Source: Pseudomonadota bacterium
Lineage (GTDB): Bacteria; Myxococcota_A; UBA9042
Length of the DNA stretch: 64,000 nucleotides
Direction of reading: 5' to 3'
NCBI GenBank assembly: GCA_005792545.1
Contig: SXRM01000386.1
Coordinates: 934 to 64,933 of the forward strand
In this document: piece by piece, positions 37,463 through 61,189 of the stretch
How the letters are laid out: each line of letters starts with the position of its first letter
Position numbering within the stretch: the first letter of the stretch is position 1
Notes under the pieces: model-generated
Databases searched by the model: none
What the model was told of the DNA's origin: nothing
What the model saw: only the letters and a program-made list of their open reading frames with translations
Position numbers and translations under genes: made by a program

Positions 37463-40207
37463 TCAGTTCGGCTGCGCAGCGAGTTCTGCTTCGGCGTCTT
37501 TGAGCATCTGCTTGAACTTGCCGTTGGCCGGATCGCGGTCGACTGCTTTGCGCAAATACAGCACCTTGAGCTTGGCTGTCGTCGCCTTCTGCGCGAGCAC
37601 GGCAAACCGGGCCGCTTCCTTTTGAGCGTCGTTGGCCTCAGCGGCCGCCGGCGGTGCTGGCGGTTTCTCGGCCTTCTCGACCTTGGGCGGCTTGGCCGCT
37701 TCCTTCTTGGCGGCAGCTTCCTCTTTCTTCTTGCGCGCCTCGTCGGCTTTGCGCGCTTTTTCCGACTCGGCGGCCTTCTTGCGCTCTTCATCTGCTTTGC
37801 GGCGCTCTTCGTCAGCCTTCTTGGCGGCAGCCTCTTCTTTCTTCTTGCGCTGCTCGTCGGCCTTGCTGACCTCTGCCTCCGCTTTCTTCTTGGCGGCCTC
37901 GGCCTTGGTGGCTTGCTCCTCTTGCTTCTTGCGGTCCGCCTCCGCTTGCTTGGCCGCCTTGTCATCGGCCTTCTTGCGCTCGGCTTCGGCCTTTTCCAAT
38001 TCTGCCGCGGCCTGCTTGGCAGCCGCCTCGTCGGCAGCCTTCTTCTTGGCTTCGGCCTCCGCGGCGGCTTTGTTGTCGGCCTCGGCCTTGGCAGCCGCAG
38101 CCTTGTTGTCGGCCTCCGTCTTGGCAGCGGCGGTGGCCGCACCCGCAGCGGCATCGACTTGGGCTTGCTCGACCTGCTTTTGCAGGGCCGCCGCCTGGGC
38201 GTCGCCTGGCAGTAGCACTTGCGCCGCCTTGGCCTTTTCCAGCGCTTGGTCGAGCGTGCCGGCGCGCAGCAGCGCCTGACCCTCTTCGACCAGCTTGGCG
38301 GCCTGCGCGGACGGCGGCTCGGTGACCTCAGCGGCAACCTCCGGCGCCGCAGCGACGGCGTCGACAGCGGGCTCGGGGTTGGGCGCTGCGATGTCCGCGG
38401 CCGGGGCGGGCGCCGGCTCTGGAACTGGTGCGGGCGTCGGCGCAGGTGCGGTCGCTGGTGGTGCGGCGGCCTCACTGCCCTCTGGCGGAACGGGTGGCGG
38501 CTCTGGCGGAGCGTTGACTTTGATGTAGACGCCAACCGCCAACATGGCCACGGCGAATGCCGCGAGGGCGCCAAGCAGCAGCTTGTTGACCTTTTGCGGC
38601 GGCGGCACGGGCGGGCCCTGCTCGTGCAAGTCTTTGCCCGCCTCGTGCTTGTCGTTGTGCGAAAAAAACGCCGACTCGTGCATCGCCTCGACGCGGATGC
38701 GATCGGTGGTCTTGACCGTGCGGCCGGTGCCAGCCGCCGCCGGGCTGGCGGCAGGGGCGGGCGCTGCAGTCACCGTCACGGCTTTGGCCTGCGGCGCAGG
38801 GCTGACGGCAGCACTGGCGGCCGCCGGAACCTTGGCGGGTTCGGCTGGCTTGGCCACGTCCGCTGGGCTACGTTCGACCTTGGGTGCCGGCGAGGCGATC
38901 GGGGTCGGCGCCGACTTGCCCGCGATGGGCTGTGGGCCCCCGCGGTCGCGATCGCGCCGACTCTTCTTGCCCTTCTTGCCGCGACGGTTGGGGTCGGTGG
39001 CCACGCCAGCCGCCGAAGCCGGTTCGTCGTCGTCCTCGCCCTCGTCGTCGTCGTCAGCCGCTGCTGCACTGTCAGCCGGCGCTGGCGGAGCCGCCACCGG
39101 AGCCGCCTCTGCCTTGATCGCCGTTGGCACGGCTGTGACGTCCGGCTTGGCCGCTGCCGGTTCCGGTGCCGGCGCTGGCGCTGGCGCTGGCGCTGCGGCT
39201 TCCGGTGCAGCAACCGGTTCGGCGACTTGCTGTGGCTGGGCAGGCGCCGCAACGGGCGCAGGTTCAACTGCGACCTTGACGACAACAGTGGGCGCGGGCT
39301 CCGGTTCCGGCGCCGCGATGGCGCCGCCCAAAGCGCCGGCACGTTGGGGCACGGTCGCATCGGCGCCGCTCGGCAGAGGGCCCCAGGTTGTTGCTGCAGC
39401 TTGCAGCGTCTGCTGCCATGCGGCGGCAGTCGGACGTTTGGCCGGATCCTTGTCGAGTGCCTCGGTCAGTGCAGCCTGCAGGTCCTTGACGCCCTTGAGT
39501 GCAGGTTTGACCAGGTCGAGCCGCAGTGGCTTCTCGGCAGCCTGGCGCTTGATGACGGACAGCGGCTGCGGGCCGTGGAAAGGCGGCTTGCCAGCCGCCA
39601 GCGACCACACCGTCGTCGCCGCGCAATAGACGTCAGACGCTGGCGACAGGGCGCCACCTTTGCAGGCTTCGGCTGCCAGGTACTCAGGGGCGCCGAAAAA
39701 CTCTTCGGCAGCCGAGCCCGGCGCCACCGCCGGCAGCAAGCGCCACCAACCATAGCCAAAGGTCCGGATTTTTCCACCTGCCGCGCCGCCTTGCAGCCAC
39801 AGCCGATGCGGCCCGAGATCGCCGATCCACACGTCGGCACGCGAAGCAGCGGCGCAGGCCCCCGCCATCGCCAGCGCCGCATCGACCAGGTGCGGCATTT
39901 CGAGCTTGTCGCGGCGGCGCAGCGACTCTTCGGCCAGGCACCCGTCGGTTGCTTCGATCGCGATCCAGGCGCCCTGGTCGTCCCTGCCACTGCAGTACGC
40001 GACCAGCGCCTGCGGGCAGTCCGCCAGCTTGCGGTTGTCCGCTAGCACAGCCGCCAGCGTCGCGTCGTCCGCACGGGCTGCCGCAGACAGCCGCAGCACC
40101 AGCGCCGGCGCCGCGAGTCGGTCGTCCGTCGCGCGCACCAGCGTGCCGAGCTTGGTGGTTTCCAGCGTTTCGTGGGCGGTGAAGCGCTGGCCGATTTTTT
40201 CACTCAT
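37463..40207 (-). CDS. Membrane-anchored protein-kinase-like (probable pseudokinase) domain protein with long Ala/Lys/Glu-rich TolA-like coiled-coil region and C-terminal TPR-like segment
   Basis: N-terminal kinase-like fold with APE (GAPEYLAAE) but no VAIK Lys, HLVD instead of HRD, and DLG instead of DFG. One TM helix (LLLGALAAFAVAMLAVGVYI). Then ~250 aa of AEAKKKAADEAAAKQ... low complexity, with ~100-nt DNA-level repeats at ~37700-37900. Confidence 0.75.
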   Translation of the reverse strand: MSEKIGQRFTAHETLETTKLGTLVRATDDRLAAPALVLRLSAAARADDATLAAVLADNRKLADCPQALVAYCSGRDDQGAWIAIEATDGCLAEESLRRRDKLEMPHLVDAALAMAGACAAASRADVWIGDLGPHRLWLQGGAAGGKIRTFGYGWWRLLPAVAPGSAAEEFFGAPEYLAAEACKGGALSPASDVYCAATTVWSLAAGKPPFHGPQPLSVIKRQAAEKPLRLDLVKPALKGVKDLQAALTEALDKDPAKRPTAAAWQQTLQAAATTWGPLPSGADATVPQRAGALGGAIAAPEPEPAPTVVVKVAVEPAPVAAPAQPQQVAEPVAAPEAAAPAPAPAPAPEPAAAKPDVTAVPTAIKAEAAPVAAPPAPADSAAAADDDDEGEDDDEPASAAGVATDPNRRGKKGKKSRRDRDRGGPQPIAGKSAPTPIASPAPKVERSPADVAKPAEPAKVPAAASAAVSPAPQAKAVTVTAAPAPAASPAAAGTGRTVKTTDRIRVEAMHESAFFSHNDKHEAGKDLHEQGPPVPPPQKVNKLLLGALAAFAVAMLAVGVYIKVNAPPEPPPVPPEGSEAAAPPATAPAPTPAPVPEPAPAPAADIAAPNPEPAVDAVAAAPEVAAEVTEPPSAQAAKLVEEGQALLRAGTLDQALEKAKAAQVLLPGDAQAAALQKQVEQAQVDAAAGAATAAAKTEADNKAAAAKAEADNKAAAEAEAKKKAADEAAAKQAAAELEKAEAERKKADDKAAKQAEADRKKQEEQATKAEAAKKKAEAEVSKADEQRKKKEEAAAKKADEERRKADEERKKAAESEKARKADEARKKKEEAAAKKEAAKPPKVEKAEKPPAPPAAAEANDAQKEAARFAVLAQKATTAKLKVLYLRKAVDRDPANGKFKQMLKDAEAELAAQPN

Positions 40208-45006: not shown

Positions 45007-45423
45007 TCAGCGGGTGTCAACATTTGCCCGGGCTTGGCGCAGGTTGCGCAGGCCCGCGCGCAAAGTCGGCGCCACCTTCGCCCAGGCCCGACCCGCGGCC
45101 CGCACCGCCGCGCCAATCGGGCCACTGCGAGGCATTGGCACCACCACCGCGCCCCAGCGCACGGCGCACAGTCGGCCGACGATGGCTGCGCGTGACACCG
45201 GCGGATCGCAGCGATCGCGGGTGTCGCCGCGCAGAATCACACGATCGCCGTCGATGATTTCCACGCGGTGCAAGACGATCGCTGGGGCAGGGCCACTAAC
45301 GACGCCCACGATGTCGCCAACTTGTAGGACATCGACCGCGTCAAGTGCGATCTCGGCTGGGGCGGCCAGTGGCCACATCGACCGGCCGGCAACTGGGTGC
45401 CAGACGCGGGCGCTTGCGGTCAC
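45007..45423 (-). CDS. S24/S26-type (LexA/signal-peptidase-like) serine peptidase domain protein
   Basis: The GTG at 45423 overlaps the rSAM TGA stop. AGRSMWP matches the GDSMxP nucleophile motif. GDIVGVV...AIVLHRVEIIDGDRVILRGD follows the S24 beta-fold pattern with His in place of the usual Lys. The ORF-track start at 45873 is inside the rSAM gene. Confidence 0.55.
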   Translation of the reverse strand: MTASARVWHPVAGRSMWPLAAPAEIALDAVDVLQVGDIVGVVSGPAPAIVLHRVEIIDGDRVILRGDTRDRCDPPVSRAAIVGRLCAVRWGAVVVPMPRSGPIGAAVRAAGRAWAKVAPTLRAGLRNLRQARANVDTR

Positions 45424-46622
45424 GGTTTGCTCGGTGCAGCGAGAACCCGGGCGCCCTGACCCTTGCGAGGTCGGTAGATGGGGAAGACGAATCGCTCCGG
45501 TCGCGGCGGCCGTTCGGACCCCGCGGGGACGCTGGCCCACTGCTCCGGAGCCCACGTCGGGCCGTGGGCGGCTTCGTAGCCGAGCATGCGCAAGCGGGTG
45601 CGGGTATGAAAGTGGCCTGGGGGCTTCCGATAGTCGCCCGTGTTCTTGAACGCTTCGCCTGGGCAATAGAAGCAGGCTCCGCTTCCGCCACAGCTGTGGC
45701 AGGCCGTGCGCTCGCGGTTGGTCCAGTCGCGCAGGGCCAGGCGTGCTGGTGAACCAGACCAGATATCGGCCAGCGCCTGCTGCCGCAGGTTGCCAAGCTC
45801 CATTGGAAACACGACACACGGCCAGACGCCACCGTCGGGGGCGATGTACACGAGGCGCCGGCCGGCACCACACGGACCCTGCGACAGCCGGTCTTTGACC
45901 TGAGCGGTCGGTGGCGGCACCGTTCGGGTCAGTGCGATGAGTTGCTCGGCTCGAATCCGCCGGTCCACCGCCAGGTTCAAGCTGTCGAGACCCTCATTGC
46001 CGGCATTATCGCGTGAAATATCCAAGCCGAACCTAACCGTGCAGCCCAGAGCCACAAAACGGTCGAAAATCGCCGGAATTTCTTCGACAGTTTGGTCCTG
46101 GACGACCACACTCGCTTGCACAGGGACGCCAACAGCCCGCAGGCACTGGATGCCGGTCAGCGTCCTTGCCAGTGATCCAGGATGCCGGGTAAAGGCGTCG
46201 TGAATCTCCGGCCGCAACGAGTAGACGCTGACGTCGACCCGCGTGACCATTTGCTCGGCGTACCGCGCCGCGACGGCGGCATCGACGTTGCCCGCGTGGG
46301 TCTTGATGCGATTCGCAAAGCCCTTTGCCGTTGCGTAGGCCAGCAGCTCCTCAAAGTCGGCGCGCTGGCTGACGTCGCCACCTGACCACGTCAGCAGCAG
46401 CGTCCCCATCGCCGCCAACTGGTCCAACACCGCGCGCCACTCTGCCCCTGTCATTTCGGGATAAGTCGTTCGGTTGTCCAAGTAGCAGTGCTGGCAGTCC
46501 AGGTCGCACCGATAGGTCAGGTTGATGTGCGCCGAAACCGGCACATCCGCTTGCGCGTAGAGCGCCAATGCGGCATCGACCGAGGCCACTTCCGTAGCGG
46601 CCGGACTCGCGGCGGCGATCAT
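45420..46622 (-). CDS. Radical SAM / SPASM-domain peptide-modifying enzyme (maturase)
   Basis: CxxxCxxC radical SAM motif NLTYRCDLDCQHCY. C-terminal SPASM cysteines GPCGAGRR...CVVFP...CHSCGGSGACFYCPGE. The ATG at 46622 overlaps the HprK-like gene stop (ATGA). The ORF-track start at 46928 lies inside the upstream gene. Confidence 0.85.
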   Translation of the reverse strand: MIAAASPAATEVASVDAALALYAQADVPVSAHINLTYRCDLDCQHCYLDNRTTYPEMTGAEWRAVLDQLAAMGTLLLTWSGGDVSQRADFEELLAYATAKGFANRIKTHAGNVDAAVAARYAEQMVTRVDVSVYSLRPEIHDAFTRHPGSLARTLTGIQCLRAVGVPVQASVVVQDQTVEEIPAIFDRFVALGCTVRFGLDISRDNAGNEGLDSLNLAVDRRIRAEQLIALTRTVPPPTAQVKDRLSQGPCGAGRRLVYIAPDGGVWPCVVFPMELGNLRQQALADIWSGSPARLALRDWTNRERTACHSCGGSGACFYCPGEAFKNTGDYRKPPGHFHTRTRLRMLGYEAAHGPTWAPEQWASVPAGSERPPRPERFVFPIYRPRKGQGARVLAAPSKP

Positions 46623-47491
46623 GGCTGGACCGCAGCGAGGCCGCCGCAGGGCAACTGCGGGACCTGTTGCAAGTCTGGCAAAAGCAGCGAAGCCAAGGCC
46701 ACTTCGACCACCTCGACCGGGTCGCTCAGGCAATGTGTCAACACCCCAATCGGCACCGACGCCGTAAGCGCTGCGATGCGCTCCGCCGTTGCAGCTGCTG
46801 CGGCACCTCCGGCGTACCAGCAATGCGGCGCGATTTCCCCAACACATTGAGGCCAATTCGCCCGGTCCACATGCGTCCGGGACCGATCGGCAGCCAGTCG
46901 GACCATGGCGGCAAGGGGCGTCGCCCACGGCAAGTGCTCACCGCGAATTCGTATGGCGTTTTGCCGCCACGCCTGCCACTTGGACGGGTCAGGAGCGGAG
47001 GGCACCAGGTACACCAAGTCGTCGTGGAGTGCGCGATCAACGAACCGGCTTGCCAACGTCGACTTGCCCGCCCCGGAGACACCGCACACCACAAACACAC
47101 CCGACGACAGCGACAGCGCCGCACCGTGAACAAGCAGACCGCCGGCTTGTAACACGAGCGCCTGCAGCATCCACAATAGATTGCTACCGAACTCCCTTAG
47201 ACCACCGACCAAGTCAATCGGTTGCGACAAGGTCAGCGTGCCGGTGCCCTCGCGATGATCCCATTGGCCCCGCACTGACCCTATTCGCCAGCTGCAGTGG
47301 TGCGCGTCAAACTCGTCAAATTCAAGCGCGTCACCTGCCGCAAATTCCGTCGTCGTCACCTCAAGTTCCAGATCAAGGCGCTCGCCGGGTTCCGGCAGGC
47401 ACCACGGTCGCTGCAGGCCGCTCGTATTGACCGGCAGCCTCAGGCCAACGCGGAGCGGACCCAGGCGTACGGTCCGCTGCAACTGATCCAT
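46619..47491 (-). CDS. HPr kinase/phosphorylase-related P-loop kinase (HprK-related kinase, RiPP-cassette type)
   Basis: Walker A GVFVVCGVSGAGKSTLASRFV in a ~290-aa protein. It sits immediately upstream of and translationally coupled to the rSAM/SPASM gene. Confidence 0.7.
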   Translation of the reverse strand: MDQLQRTVRLGPLRVGLRLPVNTSGLQRPWCLPEPGERLDLELEVTTTEFAAGDALEFDEFDAHHCSWRIGSVRGQWDHREGTGTLTLSQPIDLVGGLREFGSNLLWMLQALVLQAGGLLVHGAALSLSSGVFVVCGVSGAGKSTLASRFVDRALHDDLVYLVPSAPDPSKWQAWRQNAIRIRGEHLPWATPLAAMVRLAADRSRTHVDRANWPQCVGEIAPHCWYAGGAAAAATAERIAALTASVPIGVLTHCLSDPVEVVEVALASLLLPDLQQVPQLPCGGLAAVQP

Positions 47492-47494
47492 GCA

Positions 47495-47659
47495 CTATTC
47501 CTGCAACGGGGCTTCTGGCGGACAGCCCGAAGCAAGCAAGGCGTTCAGCGCGGACTCCGCCGTCTGCACCGTCGGCGCGCTGTAGGGCTTGCGAGCGTGT
47601 TGGCGACCATCATCCGCCAGCGGATCCTCCGATGTCTGCCTGAAATTGATGTCGTCCAT
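47495..47659 (-). CDS. Small ORF (54 aa) preceded by a strong Shine-Dalgarno sequence; candidate RiPP precursor/leader peptide: MDDINFRQTSEDPLADDGRQHARKPYSAPTVQTAESALNALLASGCPPEAPLQE
   Basis: AAGGAGAA lies 7 nt upstream of the ATG at 47659. Codon usage is atypically low in GC3 (ATC AAT TTC AGG CAG ACA) for this genome. There is a single Cys near the C-terminus. It sits 4 nt upstream of the HprK-like gene and 38 nt downstream of the giant lipoprotein. Confidence 0.45.
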   Translation of the reverse strand: MDDINFRQTSEDPLADDGRQHARKPYSAPTVQTAESALNALLASGCPPEAPLQE

Positions 47660-47720
47660 GCGAGGTTCTCCTTGTTCACCCATTGCAGACCGCGGGTCGC
47701 ACCATTCGCGGCGGTCAGCC

Positions 47721-50700
47721 TCAATACACTACGACCAGGCTTCCGTCCAGCGAACCGATCACCAGATCGACCTGACCGTCACCATTGAAGTCGCCAACCG
47801 GAGCGTAGGCCGTGCCGCCCCAACCCGTATTGGTAGAAGTGCCCCAATTCAGCTTGCCCTTGTTGAACGGATCCTCGATCCAAAAGTCCTCGTACTGCAA
47901 GCTAACTTCAGCGGGAATGGCCGACGCAGGCCGGACCATACCCAGGCGAATGACCACCCGATTGGTGCCGCCTGCGCCAGTGAAAGTCGGGATGCCGTGC
48001 ACGACGTCGATGAACGGGCCACTTGACCCCTGACGGTCGGCAAAATTTCCAGCTTGCATTGGCACCCAGTGCCACTGCCGCACCACGTAGCCGCCCTCAG
48101 CCGAGTAGGTGTCCGTGGTGCCTGTCAGCAATGCACCCGGCGTCAGCGTAAAGTTGGTTCCCAACTTGCTCGCAAGGTACGAGCCGCGCACCCAGTAGAG
48201 CCCGCCGATGCCCGCCGACGACTGGTGCTGGAGCGCAAGGTCCGGAATGCCGTCGTTATCCATCTTGATGACGGACTGGTAGGAGCCGATTTGGTTGGAG
48301 CCCGTCGCTGAGGTGCCGCGTATGGCCACAGCGGTCGCGTCGCCCGTTTGATTGCCGGCGTAGCTCAGCAGGATTTGCACGTCTCCGCTGAGCGGCCGGC
48401 CCTTGACGACGTACGCCGACTGGCCGCCCGAGTGCAGCGATGTGAACAAGTCGTCGTACTGGGTCGGTCCGCTGTCGGCTAGCATGTTTCCGACGCCGAG
48501 CATTGAATTGCCCCAGGGCGACGCGATGTTCTGATCTACCAACCGAATGGTCGCCATGTTGTTGGCGGCCCGGTCAGCATCGGCGTCAATGCTGATGGTC
48601 TTGGGGCTTGCCGAATTCCAGGCGGCATTGCCCGGCAGGACCAGCACCCGATCGTAGGCGTACTTGGAAGTGGGCTTGGTGGTAATGGCGATGTCCGCCA
48701 ACGGCTTGCCATTCGCCGCGTCGCCATTGAAGTTGCCGATGATCTGGGCCTTCCAGACCCCGTAAGGGAAACCGCCCGCGATGTCCTTGACGGTCACGGC
48801 CGGCGTGTCCGTCATGGCCGCGCCTTTCTTGCCCAGGTACACCACGACCGAGCGCAAGACACTGGTGCCGGTGCCGACCGCAGCCACGAGATCATCGACG
48901 CCATCGCCGTTGACGTCGCCGCCCGACGAAACCGGCGCGCCCAGACCACCGGGATTGGTCAAGCAAACGTGGCTCGGATAGGCGCTCGACACCGACAGGT
49001 CGATGTCCGTCACGGTTGCCTGATTGCGACCGTACACGATGCACAGCGGTTCCGCAGCGCCGCCGCCAAGCGCAACGTCTCCCAACCCGTCACCGTTCAA
49101 ATCGCCAACTTTTTGCACCCGGGACCGCATGTCCGCTTTGTTGAACGTACCGCCCAAATTGATCTTTGCGTACCGCAGGGCCAGGCCTGTCGTCGACACG
49201 CTATTCGACACCGGCGAGAGGTTGCCGGCTGCGTCTTGGGCCTGAACCGCAAAGTGCCACGACGACGCCCCGTTGTCGGTCAGCGGAACGAATTTGCAGG
49301 GGTCTGGATTGGCATAGCTGTTTGGCCGAGGATCGGGGCCTTCCACAAAGATCTGTTGTGCGGTGCCTGCGGCGGCAGGTGAGGGAATGGTCGCTGCCGG
49401 CAGCTTGGCGGCGTCGCAGGCGGCGTCAAAGTCGGCTTGCTTGTCCATCGCCACCTTGCTGTAGCGCACCAGGTACTTGTCCGCTTTGCCTGTCGCGCCA
49501 TTGTCGCCAACTGCTGTTAGAGACAGCTTCGCCATTGGCCGCCGCGCGTTGAGATCCGCCGCCTGCAAAGCGGCAAGCACCGGCGCGGCAGGCGCGACCC
49601 AGTCTACTGTGACCACGATCTGTCCGGTCCCGACATTGCCTGCGGCGTCGGTCACCGTTGCAGTGACGGTGTTGCCCGCATCCTCCTGCAGCGTAGCGAA
49701 CTGCAAGTCGATGGTCGCGGGGTTGGCAGACAACACCACTGGAAGCGCATTTGGCTGCGAGACCGCTAGCGCCACAGTCGTTGCGCCCACAGTCCGTTCC
49801 AGCTTGGTCAGCTTGCCGCCACCGAGACCTGTGTCCGTCGCCTGAACCTGCAGGTGGAGTTGATGGCCGGCTTGACCATTGAGGTCCTTCAGTTTTCCTA
49901 CCAGGACCGGACCCGGCCCGGCGCTGGTCGGCACGCCAAGCACCGTACCCGCAACAAAGGCCACTTTGGGCGCGCTGAGATCGGCCTTGAGCGCGAGCGG
50001 TCCAGACGTGCCCTTGACGGCGCCACTTCCATCAAGCGCGATCGCCTCCAGGGTCGTGTTGTCGCCGTCGGTCACCGTCAGCGCAAAGGTAGCCGCTGTA
50101 CCCGTCGGCGGCTTCTTGCCGACCTCCGTGCTGCCCTTCTTAAGTTGGATGTTGGCAATCGTTCCGCAGGGTCCAAGCAAGTCCGCGGTCACGGTGGCAC
50201 TCAGACTCGCGCAGTCCTTGTTGGCCGTTGCGCAACTGGCGTTGTTGAAGGTTCCACCCGCAGGCAGGCCTTTGAGCGACACCAAGCACCCAGAGAGTTG
50301 AACTTTAAACCCGCGCGAAGCCGTCGCGGTGTTGCCATTGGCGTCCGTCACGGTTGCTCGCACCGAGTAATTGGGCGAAGCGCCAAATGGTATGGTGATG
50401 TGCGACCCGGGGCCGCTGGAGATTGTGGACGCCACGGCGGTTGCCGCTGCGACCTGCTTGAACGCGGTGCAATTGGCGAAAGCGGCGTCGCATCCCTCAC
50501 CGATTTCGATCTTGTAGCTTGCGGTGTCGCCGACGGAAACGGCCCACGCGACCTGATAGCCACCTGCCGACGATTCTGCGTCCTGGGTGTCGCCAAACGT
50601 CGCGCCCTGTGCTGGCGTCGTAAATGACACCGTCGGCGGAATGGTATCGACAGTCACTTTGGCGGGATTGGTCGCAACCGTGGCCACATTGCCACACAGG

Positions 50701-53700
50701 TCCCGAACATCGGCCTGCAGCGAGTGGTCGCCGTCGACTAACGTCTTGTACTTGGCATCGGTGAACGTCGTCGTTCCCGCCGTCAGTTTTTCCGTCCCCT
50801 TGGTCGTGGCGCCATCTTTGAGCGTGACGTCCTGTCCTTCTGCGTCGGCAGACTGCGACACGACAACCACGTCAAGGGACTGCCCAACGATGACCTTGCT
50901 GCTCGACGGCTGCGCGAACGCGCCGGTTGGCTTGAGCGTGTCGACGACAAACGGGCCGAGATTCAGCACCGTACTGGTGTTGCCCACGAGATCGGCGGCA
51001 GTCACTGCAACGGTCAAGGTTCCTTCGGTGCTTAAGGCAAGTACGGCTGAGGCCGACTTGCCTGCTGTTGCGGCGGTGGTGGCAAAGGCCCCTCCGCCCA
51101 CCACCGTAATCTGGCCCTCTTCGCTGCCGGTCACTGAGAAAGCAAAGGTGCCACCCGGCGCGCCCAGGTCATCTTTGGACTGGCTCAGGACGTTGAGGCA
51201 AGCCGCCTTGGCGCCCGGCGCCGCCGGCTCCGTGGCAGCTGCAATCGTCGGCGCCACCGTATCGACGAACACGGTGCGTTGCTTGACGCTCAAAGCCGTT
51301 GCGCCAGTAGACGAGGTGACCGGAATGTCAGGTGGAAAGCTGCCTTCAACGACGAGCACAAACTTGCCATCGCCCAGCGTCGCCGCGTTGAACTGCATGG
51401 TCAGCGACACCGGCAAGGTGCCCGCGTCGATCTGCTTGTAGCCGCTTGTCGCACAGTCTGGACCGCTCGCGCCCGAACCTGATGCACACAGCACCATCTT
51501 GCTGCCTGCCGGAAAGCCCGTCGTCGACGCTGTAACGGTGCGGTTGGCTGCCTTGCCCCAAGGCACAGCGCAGGTCCCACTGATGCACAAGTTGGCGCCG
51601 CAATTCGCGTGCGATGTGCAGGGCCCTTCCGAGACATTACTGGGACCGGTGATGCCAATCGATGCCTGCTTGGACTGCACCTGAATTGCGTAGGTCACCG
51701 TCGCGACGTTGCCGGCAAGATCCGTCACCGTAAACACGAGCTTGGTGTCGACCGAATCCTTCAGATCGACTTTGCCGAAGTCCGCCTTGCCGGTGTCGTT
51801 GGTTACTGCCCCAATCTTGGCTTGCAGCGTTGACTTCGCCCCCAACTGGTCCAGATCAAGCGTCACAGTTTGGCCGGCTTGGGCACCCTTGACCGCAACC
51901 GTCAGCACGATCTGCATACCGTCAGTGAACTTGTCGATGTCTTCCACGGCCACGAGCGTGAACTGAAGGTCAGCCTTGGCCGGGGATGCCAATGGCAGAA
52001 ACTTGGGCGCAACGCGGTCCACCGTCACGGTAATTTCTTGCGACAATGCCACTTGCAGTGCCGCGTCGGTCGCCTTGGCCGCCAATTTACAAGCGCTTTG
52101 GTCTTTGAGCGCGACCGCTGTGAAAGTCGCCTTGCCACCCAAAACACTCGCAGTCGCCTGTTTGGGCGGGTCTACGCCACAAGTCACGGTCAGCTCCGCC
52201 CCCGCGCCATCCTCCACATCGGTCACGGTGGCAACGACGTCGGTTACACAGTCTTGAGCGCCAGCCAGGCATTGTGCGCTGGTCGCGTTGAACACCGCCT
52301 TGTCCAGCGGCGCCGTGATGGCCACGGACGGCTTGGTCGACTTGAATGTCACGGTGACTTCGGGCGAAAAGCCCTTGTCTTTGTCGCCTGCGCCCACGGC
52401 TTTGGCCGCGAATAGCACCTTGGTTATCGGCTTGCCAGACAAGCCCGTCACCGTGAACTCGTAGATCCCAGGCGCAGTTTCGGTCACCGTAACGGCCTGG
52501 GTCGCGCCATCGACCAACACTTCGGTGGTCGCGCCCTTGACCGGTGCGCCGCCCACATTGGTGACCTGTGCGACGAATTTGAAGACGTCTGCCACCGTCG
52601 AGATCGCGGTGCTGGGCGGCGAGGTGAACTGGACGATCGGCGCCGCCGAAACCAGCGTCCCAACCCACGGCGCGGCGACCGTCTGATTGCCGACCTCGTC
52701 GTCGGCGGTGACTTGCACGGTGTTCAGACCCGGCTGAAGCGTGACGGCGGCGAACACCACTTTCTTGTCTGCCGCCGTGGTCAACTTGCAGTCCTTTTGG
52801 CCGGACGACGACTGCAGGCAAACCTTGACCGCATCCGCGATGTCGACCTGGACATCGACCTGATAACCCGGGGTTGCCGGCGCTGAGTCCGGATCGTCGA
52901 GCGTGGTCAGCGTGGCTTTGCTCGGCAGCGAGATCGTTGCCGTTGGGCCGGTCGTGTCTAGCGTCAACGTGCGGGTGGCGTCGCTGCACAGGCTCGCGGC
53001 CGCGTGGTTGCCAAAACCGTCGATGGCGTCCAGGTTGAAGGTGTACTCACCGTCCAACAACTTCTGGCCGGCCGGTTGCAAGTTGACGGAATTGGCGACG
53101 CCGCTGTCGGTGGCGGTGCCGACGGCGATCGGATCGAAGACGACCCCAGACGCCGACTTGAGCGAAAGCGTGACTGCGGCGCCTTGCAGGTTGGCGGCCG
53201 ACGCCACCAGAGCCAGCGTCGTCGAATTGGTCTTTGCTTTGTCGGCAGGCGATTGGACCTTAATGCACGGCGCAGGCAAAGCCACCACAAACGGCACCTC
53301 CGCCGAGACGGCGGCGTTCGGCGCGTTGTCGGTGGCGATACAAGCCACCTTGTTGCCGTAAACCTGGGCGTCGATGGCGACCGGCACCAGCAATGTTGCG
53401 CCAACCTTATAGTTCGCGGTGCCGACCGGTTGCTGGCCAAGCGGCGCGCCCAGCACGTTCTTGCGGCAGTACACCGCGATGTCGCTGTCAGCCGTGCCGC
53501 CGTTGATCGCGACCGTGACCTTGGCCTCATACACCAGCGCCGTCGCCGCGTTGCCGTCGTCCTTGGCGAGCCAGGTGCCATTGACCACCGGATCGGTGAT
53601 GGCGAGGCCTGCGACGTTGGCGAACACGGTATAGACGGCAGACGCCGAACCTGACAGGCCGCAAGAGTTCTTGGCGGTGATCTTTAGCGCGTAGGCCTTG

Positions 53701-54812
53701 GACTCCGGGAACGACCACGGCACCGCAAACGAACCGTCGGCTTGCACAGTGGTCGTGACGGTGGCGGTGCCTTCCATGGCCACTTCGACGGCGCCAATAT
53801 CCGCCGGAGTGAGCGTGGTGGCCTTGCCGCTGATGAGTACCTGAACGCCTGCAGCCACTGGATCGGTGTCATCGGTCAGCGTCAGTTGGCCCGGCAGGGG
53901 TGCGGTAATGGTCACCACCGGCGATTCGGTCGTGAGCGTCACCACCTGCACCGGCGACTCGCCCTCGGGACGGTTGCCGCCCGCGTCTTTGACTACCGCG
54001 GTCACCTTCGCGGATGCGCCAGTCAACCCTTTGGATTTGCTAGACAGCTTGACCTGCACTGGCACCGATTGACTGCCGGCCAGCGCGACTTCGGCGGACG
54101 TGACGCTGTTGCCCTCCGCGTCGGTTACCTTGAGGTAAGCGTGCGTGCAGTCGGCCGTGTCGGTCTTGACAGTGAAGGTGTACTGAAAGCCATCGGTTTG
54201 CGGATCGGCGTCGTCGGTCAAACAGGCCGGCGCAGCGACCAGCGCAGCCGAACAGGCATTGCCGCACTGGACCTGAACTGTTTTGCTGGCCTGGCCGACG
54301 GCGCCCGGCGCCACGGTCACGACGACGCCGAGCGTGGATGGCGCTGCCGCACACGGCACAGTGACTTTGTCGAAGCGCGCTGCGCCCTTGCTGATGACGC
54401 TCGGCTGGCCGACCGCCTGACCACCAACCGACAGCACGACCGACGCGCCGTCCGGTGCGTTGGTGGTCTGCACCACCACGTTGACCTGAATGCCGATCTC
54501 TGGAGCGAGGTCGTTCTTGGTGTCCAGGTTGGCCGTGTTGACCGTGCCCTCGAGCGCGTTACCGGTCTTGGTCTCGAGATAGAAGTTGACCGTCGGCGCC
54601 ACGGGTGGCACGTCCTGGTTGCCGACCTCGCCTCCGTCTACCTCTGCGCCGATGTCCGGACAGGCGCCGTCGCACTTCTGACCGACTACCGCAACGTCGT
54701 CGGTGCAGGCGTTGACGATCAAGGTGGCCGCGAGAACGGTCAGGCGAAGCGGACGCCACCATGCCAACACGGTAGACGCCAGGGGATTGCTCGGGGTGCC
54801 CAAACTGACCAT
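47721..54812 (-). CDS. Giant (2364 aa) extracellular lipoprotein with >15 tandem Ig-like/cadherin-like (Big) domains, a Cys-rich insert, and C-terminal FG-GAP/integrin-alpha-like beta-propeller repeats
   Basis: The start Met at 54812 gives MVSLGTPSNPLASTVLAWWRPLRLTVLAATLIVNAC, a lipobox. There are long runs of T/V/A-rich Ig-like repeats. FG-GAP calcium-binding loops include DLNGDGLGDVALGG, DVNGDGVDDLV, DNDGIPDLAL and DFNGDGQVDLVIGS. It ends ...SLVVVY. Confidence 0.85.
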   Translation of the reverse strand: MVSLGTPSNPLASTVLAWWRPLRLTVLAATLIVNACTDDVAVVGQKCDGACPDIGAEVDGGEVGNQDVPPVAPTVNFYLETKTGNALEGTVNTANLDTKNDLAPEIGIQVNVVVQTTNAPDGASVVLSVGGQAVGQPSVISKGAARFDKVTVPCAAAPSTLGVVVTVAPGAVGQASKTVQVQCGNACSAALVAAPACLTDDADPQTDGFQYTFTVKTDTADCTHAYLKVTDAEGNSVTSAEVALAGSQSVPVQVKLSSKSKGLTGASAKVTAVVKDAGGNRPEGESPVQVVTLTTESPVVTITAPLPGQLTLTDDTDPVAAGVQVLISGKATTLTPADIGAVEVAMEGTATVTTTVQADGSFAVPWSFPESKAYALKITAKNSCGLSGSASAVYTVFANVAGLAITDPVVNGTWLAKDDGNAATALVYEAKVTVAINGGTADSDIAVYCRKNVLGAPLGQQPVGTANYKVGATLLVPVAIDAQVYGNKVACIATDNAPNAAVSAEVPFVVALPAPCIKVQSPADKAKTNSTTLALVASAANLQGAAVTLSLKSASGVVFDPIAVGTATDSGVANSVNLQPAGQKLLDGEYTFNLDAIDGFGNHAAASLCSDATRTLTLDTTGPTATISLPSKATLTTLDDPDSAPATPGYQVDVQVDIADAVKVCLQSSSGQKDCKLTTAADKKVVFAAVTLQPGLNTVQVTADDEVGNQTVAAPWVGTLVSAAPIVQFTSPPSTAISTVADVFKFVAQVTNVGGAPVKGATTEVLVDGATQAVTVTETAPGIYEFTVTGLSGKPITKVLFAAKAVGAGDKDKGFSPEVTVTFKSTKPSVAITAPLDKAVFNATSAQCLAGAQDCVTDVVATVTDVEDGAGAELTVTCGVDPPKQATASVLGGKATFTAVALKDQSACKLAAKATDAALQVALSQEITVTVDRVAPKFLPLASPAKADLQFTLVAVEDIDKFTDGMQIVLTVAVKGAQAGQTVTLDLDQLGAKSTLQAKIGAVTNDTGKADFGKVDLKDSVDTKLVFTVTDLAGNVATVTYAIQVQSKQASIGITGPSNVSEGPCTSHANCGANLCISGTCAVPWGKAANRTVTASTTGFPAGSKMVLCASGSGASGPDCATSGYKQIDAGTLPVSLTMQFNAATLGDGKFVLVVEGSFPPDIPVTSSTGATALSVKQRTVFVDTVAPTIAAATEPAAPGAKAACLNVLSQSKDDLGAPGGTFAFSVTGSEEGQITVVGGGAFATTAATAGKSASAVLALSTEGTLTVAVTAADLVGNTSTVLNLGPFVVDTLKPTGAFAQPSSSKVIVGQSLDVVVVSQSADAEGQDVTLKDGATTKGTEKLTAGTTTFTDAKYKTLVDGDHSLQADVRDLCGNVATVATNPAKVTVDTIPPTVSFTTPAQGATFGDTQDAESSAGGYQVAWAVSVGDTASYKIEIGEGCDAAFANCTAFKQVAAATAVASTISSGPGSHITIPFGASPNYSVRATVTDANGNTATASRGFKVQLSGCLVSLKGLPAGGTFNNASCATANKDCASLSATVTADLLGPCGTIANIQLKKGSTEVGKKPPTGTAATFALTVTDGDNTTLEAIALDGSGAVKGTSGPLALKADLSAPKVAFVAGTVLGVPTSAGPGPVLVGKLKDLNGQAGHQLHLQVQATDTGLGGGKLTKLERTVGATTVALAVSQPNALPVVLSANPATIDLQFATLQEDAGNTVTATVTDAAGNVGTGQIVVTVDWVAPAAPVLAALQAADLNARRPMAKLSLTAVGDNGATGKADKYLVRYSKVAMDKQADFDAACDAAKLPAATIPSPAAAGTAQQIFVEGPDPRPNSYANPDPCKFVPLTDNGASSWHFAVQAQDAAGNLSPVSNSVSTTGLALRYAKINLGGTFNKADMRSRVQKVGDLNGDGLGDVALGGGAAEPLCIVYGRNQATVTDIDLSVSSAYPSHVCLTNPGGLGAPVSSGGDVNGDGVDDLVAAVGTGTSVLRSVVVYLGKKGAAMTDTPAVTVKDIAGGFPYGVWKAQIIGNFNGDAANGKPLADIAITTKPTSKYAYDRVLVLPGNAAWNSASPKTISIDADADRAANNMATIRLVDQNIASPWGNSMLGVGNMLADSGPTQYDDLFTSLHSGGQSAYVVKGRPLSGDVQILLSYAGNQTGDATAVAIRGTSATGSNQIGSYQSVIKMDNDGIPDLALQHQSSAGIGGLYWVRGSYLASKLGTNFTLTPGALLTGTTDTYSAEGGYVVRQWHWVPMQAGNFADRQGSSGPFIDVVHGIPTFTGAGGTNRVVIRLGMVRPASAIPAEVSLQYEDFWIEDPFNKGKLNWGTSTNTGWGGTAYAPVGDFNGDGQVDLVIGSLDGSLVVVY

Positions 54813-54862
54813 TGTCCTATCCTCCGGACCGAAAATTGACTTGAAGATCAAGCGGCTCGACA

Positions 54863-55231
54863 TCATAGCCGCCCGCCCGTGGGTTCGTTGGCGGTGGCGA
54901 TTTGCTTGGCCAGCAGCGTGTCGACAAACGTCGTCACATCCAGGCAGGCGGTCGCCGCATCGACCTGGTAGTCGCGCACGAGCAACTCTGCTAGTTCGCT
55001 GACCGTGGCTGGCGCCGCTGCGAGTCGCTTGATGAGGTCCACTGCCGTCGGGGCCGCGAGGCGGTGAAACGCCCGATCGCCGGTGATGACGAAGACCTCG
55101 CCACCGACGTTTCGCCACGCTGCGCGCGGGTGGATGCGGACGACGGCCGCCGCGGCCGCGGTGTTTGTCGGAGCGCCGGCGCCCAAGACATCGCGATCGG
55201 GATGGACCTGATCAGGTTGCGGCATCTGCAT
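54863..55231 (-). CDS. PqqD-family protein (RiPP recognition element-like)
   Basis: GEVFVITGDRAFHRLAAPTAVDLIKRLAAAPATVSELAELLVRDYQVDAATACLDVTTFVDTLLAKQIA matches the PqqD/RRE winged-helix pattern. The start is uncertain (ATGs at 55231 and 55225, or an upstream GTG). Confidence 0.6.
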   Translation of the reverse strand: MQMPQPDQVHPDRDVLGAGAPTNTAAAAAVVRIHPRAAWRNVGGEVFVITGDRAFHRLAAPTAVDLIKRLAAAPATVSELAELLVRDYQVDAATACLDVTTFVDTLLAKQIATANEPTGGRL

Positions 55232-55376
55232 ACTCGTTCGCGGTGCCCAAGTGGACACGGTAGCTGGGTTGGCCCGGCCGCTGCACGTCGCGCGGTGAGT
55301 TGCCGACAGCCCGATTCGGGGCCGCCACCCGGACAATTCTAGGTTGCACGGACAGCACGCGAAGTTGCGCCGCACA

Positions 55377-55458
55377 GTTACAGAATTTCACATCGACGGC
55401 GGTTACAGAATTTCACATCGACGGCGGTTACAGAATTTCCCATCGACGGCGGTTCGCG
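55377..55458. repeat. Tandem direct repeat, 25-bp unit x 3.3 (GTTACAGAATTTCACATCGACGGCG), intergenic upstream of the PqqD-like gene
   Basis: Copies at 55377-55401, 55402-55426 and 55427-55451 (one A->C mismatch), plus a partial fourth copy. The unit is much more AT-rich than the surrounding sequence. It lies between the tsaB stop and the PqqD-like start. Confidence 0.85.
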
Positions 55459-60242: not shown

Positions 60243-60250
60243 GCTAAAAC

Positions 60251-61189
60251 TTGCGCATTTCCATCGAGCAGACCGCGATCCTGCGCCAGCGTCAAGTCGA
60301 GGCCGGCAAGGCCCGCCCGCGCCTGCCCGAGTGGCTGCGCGCGCCGCTGCCCGGCGGTCCCCGCTACGCCGAGATCAAGACCCGACTGCGCGACCGCGGC
60401 CTGCACACCGTCTGCGAAGAGGCGCAGTGCCCCAACATCGGCCAGTGCTGGAACGAAGGCACCGCGACGCTGATGTTGCTCGGCGACACCTGTACCCGCG
60501 CGTGCCGTTTTTGCGCCATCAAGACCAATCCGCGACCACCACCGCTCGATCCGGACGAGCCGGCCAAAGCCGCCGAGCAGGTCGCGGTGATGGGCCTGGA
60601 TTACGTGGTGTTGACCAGCGTCAACCGCGACGACCTCCCCGACGGCGGCGCCGGGCAGTTTGCCGCCACAGTGCAGGCGATCAAGCACCGCTGTCCGCAG
60701 ACGTTGGTCGAAGTGCTGACGCCGGACTTTCAAGGTCATTTCGACGCGGTCGACACGGTGCTCGACGCTGGCCCCGACGTGTTCGCGCACAACGTCGAGA
60801 CAGTGGCAGCGCTGACGGCGGCCATTCGCGATCGGCGCGCCACCTTCGACCAGAGCTGTCAGGTGCTTGCCCACGCCAAGCGGCATCGGCCGACGGTCGT
60901 GACCAAAAGCTCGGTCATGCTCGGGCTTGGCGAGACTGAGGCCCAGGTTTGGGATGCGTTACGAGCGCTGCGCGCCCATGCGGTCGACGCGGTGACCATC
61001 GGCCAGTACCTGCGGCCGAGCCCCTGGCACGCCGAAGTGGTGCGGTTCGTGCCGCCCGACGAGTTTACTGCGTGGCAGCGCGCAGCGGCCGAGCTCGGCT
61101 TTCGGTACTGCGCTTCGGGGCCGCTGGTCCGCTCGAGCTACCGCGCCGGCGAGCACTACCTGCGCGGGCTGGCGCGGCCGTCAGAATAG
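60251..61189 (+). CDS. lipA: Lipoyl synthase
   Basis: Auxiliary cluster CEEAQCPNIGQC and radical SAM cluster CTRACRFC are present. The start is annotated as TTG at 60251. Confidence 0.92.
   Translation: MRISIEQTAILRQRQVEAGKARPRLPEWLRAPLPGGPRYAEIKTRLRDRGLHTVCEEAQCPNIGQCWNEGTATLMLLGDTCTRACRFCAIKTNPRPPPLDPDEPAKAAEQVAVMGLDYVVLTSVNRDDLPDGGAGQFAATVQAIKHRCPQTLVEVLTPDFQGHFDAVDTVLDAGPDVFAHNVETVAALTAAIRDRRATFDQSCQVLAHAKRHRPTVVTKSSVMLGLGETEAQVWDALRALRAHAVDAVTIGQYLRPSPWHAEVVRFVPPDEFTAWQRAAAELGFRYCASGPLVRSSYRAGEHYLRGLARPSE

Follow-up and report, generated by a model that had tools for sequence, protein, structure and literature searches.

The minus strand of a 64,000-nt stretch of contig SXRM01000386.1 (assembly GCA_005792545.1), hereafter the window, carries between positions 45007 and 55231 six genes that we analysed as a candidate maturation pathway for a peptide that is made by the ribosome and modified after translation (RiPP). 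In reading order they encode a PqqD-family protein of 122 amino acids (aa; 54863-55231), a giant lipoprotein of 2363 aa (47721-54812), a putative precursor peptide of 54 aa (47495-47659), a ScmC-like P-loop protein of 290 aa with the predicted fold of phosphoenolpyruvate carboxykinase (PEPCK) and HprK kinases (46619-47491), a radical S-adenosylmethionine (SAM)/SPASM enzyme of 400 aa (45420-46622) and an S24/S26-fold peptidase-like protein of 138 aa with a GTG start (45007-45423). An earlier note, made from the letters of the window, had listed six co-directional open reading frames (ORFs), two gene overlaps and a strong Shine-Dalgarno sequence, and all of them were found in the sequence at the coordinates it had given. 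The kinase stop overlaps the radical SAM start in ATGA, the radical SAM stop overlaps the peptidase GTG start in GTGA, and the peptide ORF stop lies 3 nt from the kinase ATG. The Shine-Dalgarno sequence AAGGAG (47668-47673) stands 8 nt ahead of the peptide ATG. By codon-position GC all six ORFs look coding. There is no excess of terminators within the module, which supports an operon, and from this and the ATGA and GTGA overlaps the six genes are predicted to form a single one. A conserved six-gene operon of this kind belongs to a clade of uncultured freshwater Myxococcota, and sequence comparison lends good support to the view that it is a cassette for maturing a peptide, the product of the small ORF being the substrate.

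Searches for homologues of the kinase and the peptidase led to metagenome contigs with identical gene order, and an alignment of radical SAM orthologues was scanned over one genome per GTDB species. The loci were compared by tblastn and custom hidden Markov models (HMMs), and 27 non-redundant loci, the window included, were obtained. Every one of them is a Myxococcota metagenome-assembled genome (MAG) or metagenome contig; the module is present in 23 Myxococcota genomes of GTDB and in further metagenome contigs. Wherever the contigs reach, the genes for PqqD, giant lipoprotein, small peptide, ScmC-like protein, radical SAM enzyme and S26-like peptidase follow one another in this order, at 27-58% identity per protein and with values that drop to about 27-45%. 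Twenty loci (L020-L039) stem from MAGs labelled "Myxococcales" or Myxococcota, mostly from lakes, with radical SAM identities of 45-58%; L022 is the same contig as L007 and was counted once. Four loci (L040-L043) are from more distant Myxococcota/Polyangia MAGs and show 33-37% identity in the radical SAM enzyme. Because the arrangement recurs in 27 loci, it is far beyond chance. At L041 all six genes are kept, yet the neighbours are holB and an acyl-CoA dehydrogenase gene instead of the TPR/LysM genes found elsewhere, and the co-travelling unit therefore includes the giant gene. Conservation of the neighbourhood in relatives had been proposed as a check, and in all 27 loci the peptide ORF is retained and the genes are never scattered, although L043 is rearranged. 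The module did not extend further: the module-specific HMMs detected no PqqD, ScmC, S26-like or peptide gene in 56 loci with more distant radical SAM genes (L044-L099), and a metagenome scan with the peptidase alignment recovered one already known contig and no new locus. As a side observation, the MAG records of L029, L033, L035 and L039 are titled Klebsiella pneumoniae or 'uncultured Enterobacteriaceae', yet the locus is of the Myxococcota type (RseP/TsaB-module-TPR/LysM). The taxonomy labels of these records are probably wrong.

The small ORF was a possible substrate according to the earlier note, and the comparison of the loci supports this. The peptide HMM finds exactly one ORF per locus in 27 of 27 loci, between the giant and the ScmC-like genes (at L043 there is no adjacent giant gene), and gives no significant match elsewhere in the loci or in the rest of the window. 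The peptides are 49-74 aa long. Their N-terminal 20-35 residues are variable and are followed by the motif [R/K]-x-x-Y-x-x-P-x-[V/L/I], of which the Y-x-x-P-x-[V/L/I] part is invariant in all 27. After this leader motif comes a helix-like stretch L-x-x-L-L-x-[S/T] and then a cysteine, again common to all 27 peptides, at a Tyr-to-Cys spacing of 20 in 16 of them and of 19-23 in 24. The tail beyond the cysteine comprises 1-24 residues and is hypervariable; it is rich in Pro, Gly, Thr and Asp (12-15% each) and in Cys (7%), with 0-3 further cysteines. Asp or Glu occurs at positions +1 to +4 of the cysteine in 19/27 peptides, and a Ser or Thr is among the four residues ahead of it in 23/27. The window peptide follows this plan, with a variable N-terminus, the leader motif R-K-P-Y-S-A-P-T-V, the stretch L-N-A-L-L-A-S-G-C and the tail PPEAPLQE. 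A conserved recognition motif, a cysteine at near-fixed distance and a hypervariable end together constitute the classical anatomy of a RiPP precursor. The peptide gene shows pN/pS values (ratios of nonsynonymous to synonymous polymorphism) of 0.41-0.51 in four close pairs, and a GGAG-type motif precedes its ATG in six of eight loci examined. Judged by these patterns, the small ORF is a genuine gene under purifying selection; it has no family match in Pfam or NCBIfam. The C-terminus of the giant protein had been named as an alternative substrate, which finds no support, since the peptide HMM detects no related motif in the giant proteins.

The assignments of the PqqD-like protein and of the radical SAM/SPASM enzyme, both made in the earlier note, stand above the Pfam thresholds. 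The PqqD protein matches PF05402 with 31.3 bits against a cut-off of 23.4, its orthologues in L041 and L042 reach about 40 bits, and it is the first module gene in 21 distinct loci besides the window. A YxxPxL/YxxP leader motif is required for recognition by the RiPP recognition element (RRE) of lasso peptides, the PqqD-like B1 protein (PMC6784204). From this precedent and the invariant Y-x-x-P-x-[V/L/I] of the peptides we infer that the PqqD protein is a putative stand-alone, leader-binding RRE.

The radical SAM enzyme scores 67.4 bits for the Radical_SAM domain and 46.1 bits for SPASM. The cysteines of its CxxxCxxC motif (C39, C43, C46) and six SPASM cysteines (C251, C269, C308, C311, C317, C320) are invariant among orthologues. 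The enzyme has no fused N-terminal RRE. At its C-terminus the enzyme carries some 75 additional conserved aa (residues about 325-400; 45420-45650), which all close orthologues have in common; this extension contains the motifs HFH-x-RTR, GPTW and RFVFPIYRP and zero cysteines. The nearest solved structures by profile are SkfB (9e-26), PqqE (2e-21) and SuiB (2.5e-14), all of them maturases of small peptides. None of the NCBIfam equivalog models, including NirJ2, ScmF, SkfB and AlbA, was reached: all were far below cut-off, with scores of 75-117 bits against 265-500 for AhbD, NirJ2, MftC, PqqE, ScmE and GeoRSP. AhbD was best (116.5 bits vs 500), followed by MftC (91.8 vs 265), PqqE (90.9 vs 381), ScmE (84.9 vs 400) and GeoRSP (75.7 vs 400). 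The kinship with "Geobacter-type" systems suggested by the earlier note is thus a loose one, the GeoRSP, ScmE, PqqE and MftC models all being far below their thresholds.

The third presumed enzyme had been called an HprK-related kinase. By sequence models it is recognized at the level of a P-loop protein only, with 21.8 bits against 200 for TIGR04355, and the HprK relationship holds through its predicted fold. The AlphaFold model (mean predicted local distance difference test score, pLDDT, 84) retrieved 50 listed PDB matches in Foldseek that are ATP-PEPCK or HprK/P only (E 1.5e-6 to 2.5e-3, probability 0.99-1.0), and a profile search against PDB sequences gave a PEPCK match over 55-60 residues. 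Conserved motifs are GVSGAGKST and LHDD; H122, G137, S139, G140, G142, K143, T145 and D157 are invariant. Phmmer linked the protein to two homologues, P0002 (2e-25) and P0003 (1e-5), both annotated with PF27840 (ScmC), and of 84 matches in a profile search all carry PF27840 except the window protein and one other. The link to PF27840 runs via these homologues, as the window kinase itself has no precomputed PF27840 match. Against the ScmC equivalog TIGR04249 (cut-off 125 bits) the window protein gave no match at E < 10 and its orthologues gave 17.6-24.5 bits. The ScmC-like family is large, with 9,919 representatives at E <= 1e-3 in an exhaustive search with the kinase, and in the literature we found no experimentally known function for it.

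Many ScmC-family proteins, probably of other phyla, occur in a different conserved setting that lacks a radical SAM gene, as in L002 (1992-3995), L015 (7549-9690), L018 (7531-9590) and L016 (7519-8840). In these surroundings a membrane protein of about 150-160 aa is encoded, its stop overlapping the ScmC start in three of four loci, and a gene for an extracytoplasmic function (ECF) sigma factor is present in three of four. The trio of membrane protein, ScmC and ECF sigma factor suggests, by gene context, a signalling role for part of the ScmC family. As relatives of the present module these loci were rejected, their gene context being different.

For the last gene an S24/S26-type serine peptidase had been proposed. 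Fold comparison agrees with this, at weak E values, whereas the classical Ser/Lys pair does not stand: an invariant histidine (H-R) occupies the Lys-equivalent position, and the predicted catalytic pair is therefore Ser/His (Ser15/His52). The protein has no Pfam match, and its sole family match is TIGR02228, the archaeal/endoplasmic reticulum (ER)-type signal peptidase I (E 0.027; 14.4 bits vs 51.85). Its model (pLDDT 71) has a long C-terminal helix. In Foldseek, SEC11A, SipA and the LexA C-domain head the list, with probabilities of 0.97-1.0 but E values of only 0.03-0.1, and eukaryotic ribosomal-protein chains follow at lower probability. The motifs G-x-S-M-x-P, H-R and G-D are invariant in the 27 distinct loci aligned, the distant L040-L043 included. 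With just 14 residues ahead of the serine the protein lacks a membrane anchor, and it is presumably cytoplasmic. Gene callers shorten it to 123 aa; its homologues favour the 138-aa GTG start, which keeps the Ser motif. The S26B signal peptidases of the ER and of archaea (SEC11, SipW; TIGR02228) share the S24/S26 fold and the replacement of Ser/Lys by Ser/His. Unlike them, the window protein is unanchored, has 138 aa only and falls far short of the family cut-offs. Among the serine families, S8 and S9 appear in a 2023 review of RiPP leader proteases and S24/S26 does not (PMC10885120).

The giant protein was described beforehand as an Ig-like/FG-GAP lipoprotein, in agreement with its domain matches (Big_13 with 65 bits, FG-GAP and FG-GAP_3) and its lipobox LIVNAC. 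It has many Ig-like domains of the Big_13 type, its C-terminal 483 aa match weakly the FG-GAP beta-propeller of integrin alpha-V (E 1e-4), and a lipobox (L-x-[A/S]-C) is present in most orthologues. Over its full length it is 45% identical to the L001 orthologue. The gene lies between the PqqD and peptide genes in every locus with contig coverage, except L043. The start at 54812 has its own Shine-Dalgarno sequence, GGAGGA. One gene caller chose an alternative start at 54866, where the in-frame upstream ATG overlaps the PqqD stop in ATGA (ctATGAtg, 54863-54868); the giant protein may therefore have 2381 aa and be translationally coupled to PqqD. In the freshwater clade the last residue of the giant proteins is a Tyr, which closes a conserved hydrophobic strand (e.g. 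...GSLDGSLVVVY; 47721-47760); in the distant L041 and L042 the final residues are R and H. The conserved strand could complete the propeller as its last strand or act as a sorting signal.

Taken together, these features make probable, in our judgement, a RiPP-type peptide-maturation pathway nested around a giant surface lipoprotein, with steps carried out by the PqqD protein, the radical SAM enzyme, the kinase and the peptidase and with a product that acts together with the lipoprotein. The dedicated RiPP-like cassette of the earlier note is thereby upheld, as the PqqD-like and HprK-like assignments hold and the genes stay together. Both the chemistry and the tie to the giant lipoprotein are inferred. 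The PqqD-like protein would bind the Y-x-x-P-x-[V/L/I] leader motif, as lasso B1 RREs bind YxxPxL, and would deliver the peptide to the RRE-less radical SAM/SPASM enzyme, as PqqD does for PqqE. The latter would modify the cysteine, the likeliest product being a Cys-to-carbon thioether to a nearby residue, often an Asp or Glu of the Pro/Asp-rich tail, of the kind produced by SkfB, ranthipeptide maturases or QhpD. In a precedent for such chemistry, the radical SAM enzyme QhpD introduces Cys-Asp/Glu thioethers into a small subunit that is encoded in the same operon as large partners and a dedicated serine protease (PMC7876137). A thioether is the most plausible modification because a cysteine is the only residue shared by all predicted cores, the nearest solved relative is SkfB and QhpD provides this example. 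The first two of these form circumstantial evidence for a thioether of the sactipeptide/ranthipeptide type; the reaction type itself is a guess. HPr-kinase homologues of lasso pathways phosphorylate RiPP precursors (PMC8498205). By analogy the ScmC-like enzyme would probably phosphorylate the peptide, a candidate site being the Ser or Thr in the four residues preceding the cysteine, and the soluble Ser/His S26-like peptidase would remove the leader. The product would act with the giant lipoprotein as ligand, small partner or maturation factor, and not as an unrelated antibiotic; this is the most likely role because the giant gene lies inside the cassette everywhere bar one locus. A narrower version we put forward tentatively, as one possibility among others: that the modified peptide is the dedicated partner of an integrin-like lipoprotein, i.e. 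a cross-linked ligand, a small subunit or a maturation factor, and is released by an S26-type leader peptidase. Its counterpart would be the gamma subunit of quinohemoprotein amine dehydrogenase, which a radical SAM enzyme cross-links; the qhp operon is a precedent for a small polypeptide of this sort that joins large extracytoplasmic partners.

Several observations weigh against this pathway or parts of it. The pattern of acidic residues near the cysteine fails in 8 of the 27 peptides, and in the L038 peptide one residue only follows the cysteine. No clear A-x-A cleavage site of the S26 type is identifiable in the peptides. The nearest solved relatives of the radical SAM enzyme include C-C cross-linkers (PqqE, SuiB) and not just SkfB. 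Since ScmC-family proteins also occur without a radical SAM gene, the peptide need not be what the kinase acts on. The main gap is an exporter, which the module lacks although a peptide modified in the cytoplasm would have to meet an exported lipoprotein. At L043 the S26-like gene lies ahead of the peptide gene and there is no adjacent giant gene. Moreover, every host is uncultured, being a MAG or a metagenome contig, and the loci are confined to one phylum, so that common descent, and not selection, could account for part of the synteny.

This last point leads to the alternative of a true RiPP cassette in which the giant gene is a mere passenger, kept in place by inherited synteny in one lineage and devoid of a functional link. 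All 27 loci being from Myxococcota, the stability of clade neighbourhoods seen in the RseP/TsaB and TPR/LysM flanks, which are also syntenic in most loci, and the occurrence at L043 of the peptide, ScmC, radical SAM and S26-like genes without an adjacent giant gene are all in line with it. We consider it unlikely. The giant gene splits the RRE gene from its presumed partners wherever covered except at L043, at identities down to 26-32%, and it stays in L041, where both flanks differ. The possible ATGA coupling of PqqD and the giant gene argues in the same direction, and even L043 has a 758-aa FG-GAP protein encoded about 4 kb upstream. A closer tie between enzyme and lipoprotein is assumed if the radical SAM/SPASM enzyme matures the giant protein itself, with the small protein acting as chaperone, regulator or decoy. 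Protein maturases are known among SPASM enzymes, the anaerobic sulfatase-maturating enzyme for one, and the presence of the giant gene in the operon at covered loci (L043 excepted) and the lack of an exporter for a free peptide would fit. This is quite improbable, given that the small protein is built like a RiPP precursor, with an RRE-type motif, a spaced cysteine and a hypervariable tail, that the giant proteins contain no motif related to the peptide and that the nearest solved relatives of the enzyme all mature small peptides.

The absence of a transporter is also compatible with an intracellular peptide-derived cofactor, since a stand-alone PqqD, a radical SAM/SPASM enzyme and a peptidase without transporter form the pattern of the pyrroloquinoline quinone (PQQ) and mycofactocin pathways, and MftC and PqqE are among the better NCBIfam matches. 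Those matches, however, are far below the cut-offs (91.8 bits vs 265 and 90.9 vs 381), and genes like PqqB/C or MftD/E/F are not present. Cofactor precursors as a rule keep the cofactor-forming residues invariant, and the C-terminal part of the peptides, cysteine aside, is hypervariable in length and sequence. A cofactor is accordingly very improbable. That the small ORF is a chance ORF and that the enzymes act elsewhere is suggested by the many spurious ORFs that GC-rich DNA gives and by the missing family match; the conservation of the ORF in 27/27 loci, its invariant motif, the Shine-Dalgarno sequences ahead of it and pN/pS < 1 effectively refute this.

The favoured peptide-maturation pathway resembles several known systems and coincides with none of them. 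SynChlorMet (SCM) and other HprK-related cassettes, GeoRSP among them, known by comparative genomics only, likewise combine a stand-alone PqqD protein, a radical SAM/SPASM enzyme and a P-loop protein of the HprK/PEPCK fold. What we take to be the SynChlorMet cassette has two PqqE-like radical SAM/SPASM genes, ScmE and ScmF, whereas the window and all orthologous loci have one. In addition, the models TIGR04249 (ScmC), TIGR04250 and TIGR04251 (ScmE/F) and TIGR04303 are far below cut-off here, and the present module differs in an identified precursor, an S26-like peptidase and a nested giant lipoprotein. Lasso pathways with split B1 (paeninodin type) share the Y-x-x-P-x-[L/V/I] leader motif and a gene for an HPr-kinase homologue, and the PqqD protein weakly matches the lasso_PqqD models. 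A B2 transglutaminase-type peptidase, an Asn-synthetase-like cyclase and an ABC exporter are however lacking in or near the module; a radical SAM/SPASM enzyme stands in their place, and the peptides have no conserved C-terminal Ser. With sactipeptides (SkfA/SkfB) and ranthipeptides the module has in common SkfB as the nearest solved relative and a cysteine in every predicted core, often with further cysteines and with Asp or Glu nearby. There, the RRE is an N-terminal domain of the maturase and here it is a separate protein; the radical SAM enzyme belongs to no curated model of theirs, and here a kinase, an S26-like peptidase and a giant lipoprotein make up the accessory proteins.

The qhp operon provides a likeness by analogy only. 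One partner protein of quinohemoprotein amine dehydrogenase is a beta-propeller. In the qhp operon a small polypeptide with a leader is encoded along with the large extracytoplasmic proteins that it joins; a radical SAM enzyme cross-links it (Cys to Asp/Glu) and a dedicated serine protease trims it (PMC7876137). There is no homology to the present module beyond the radical SAM superfamily. An ABC exporter, a flavoprotein and a haem subunit are missing here, the protease is S26-type instead of subtilisin-type, and the partner is a 2363-aa Ig-like/FG-GAP lipoprotein.

The earlier note knew of no described arrangement that pairs PqqD, an HprK-like kinase and a radical SAM enzyme with a peptidase, a small peptide and a giant protein, and our searches agree. 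No curated NCBIfam model covers the peptide, the kinase, the radical SAM enzyme or the peptidase, and the source databases hold no names for any of the six proteins. In the literature no description of this module or of SynChlorMet was found, "ScmC" turning up as unrelated acronyms, and two papers on RRE-based genome mining mention neither HPr kinases nor S24 peptidases. The module is an uncharacterised variant of the known RRE-dependent radical SAM/SPASM type of RiPP pathway. It defines a coherent, uncharacterised family of radical SAM/SPASM peptides, for which the identified precursor is an immediate testable substrate. What was not found described together is a lasso-type motif with a stand-alone PqqD protein feeding a radical SAM enzyme, a ScmC-like enzyme, a soluble Ser/His protease and a nested giant lipoprotein. 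If peptide and lipoprotein do function together, RiPP chemistry would have a new use, in the construction or control of a surface structure of predatory or social bacteria. RiPP chemistry would then be coupled to a bacterial surface adhesin, and a first functional handle on ScmC-family proteins would be gained. The uncultured hosts limit immediate genetics, not heterologous reconstitution.

The module is flanked by housekeeping genes on the same strand, RseP and a TsaB-like gene upstream and TPR/YbgF-like, LysM and ApbE genes downstream. The GC content at third codon positions (GC3) of the flanking core genes is 0.82-0.86, above the 0.71-0.78 of the module genes. Despite the lower GC3, recent horizontal acquisition was rejected, since the module is at the same chromosomal position across the clade. 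An anti-phage defence system was likewise rejected; PADLOC gives only a generic radical SAM resemblance to viperins (about 30 bits).

Between the TsaB-like gene and the PqqD start, at 55377-55454, lies a tandem repeat of the 25-bp unit GTTACAGAATTTCACATCGACGGCG (3.1 copies, 98% identity). Orthologous loci have unrelated tandem repeats in the same intergenic place, for example 11.7 copies of a 15-bp unit and 5 of a 13-bp unit in L024 and 5.2 copies of a 20-bp unit in L030. They may act as arrays of operators or promoters, or as variable-number repeats that control the operon. Outside the module, the second radical SAM gene of the window (60248-61189) encodes an ordinary lipoyl synthase with LIAS_N and Radical_SAM domains, and a 914-aa Ser/Thr protein kinase is encoded at 37463-40207, downstream of the ApbE region.

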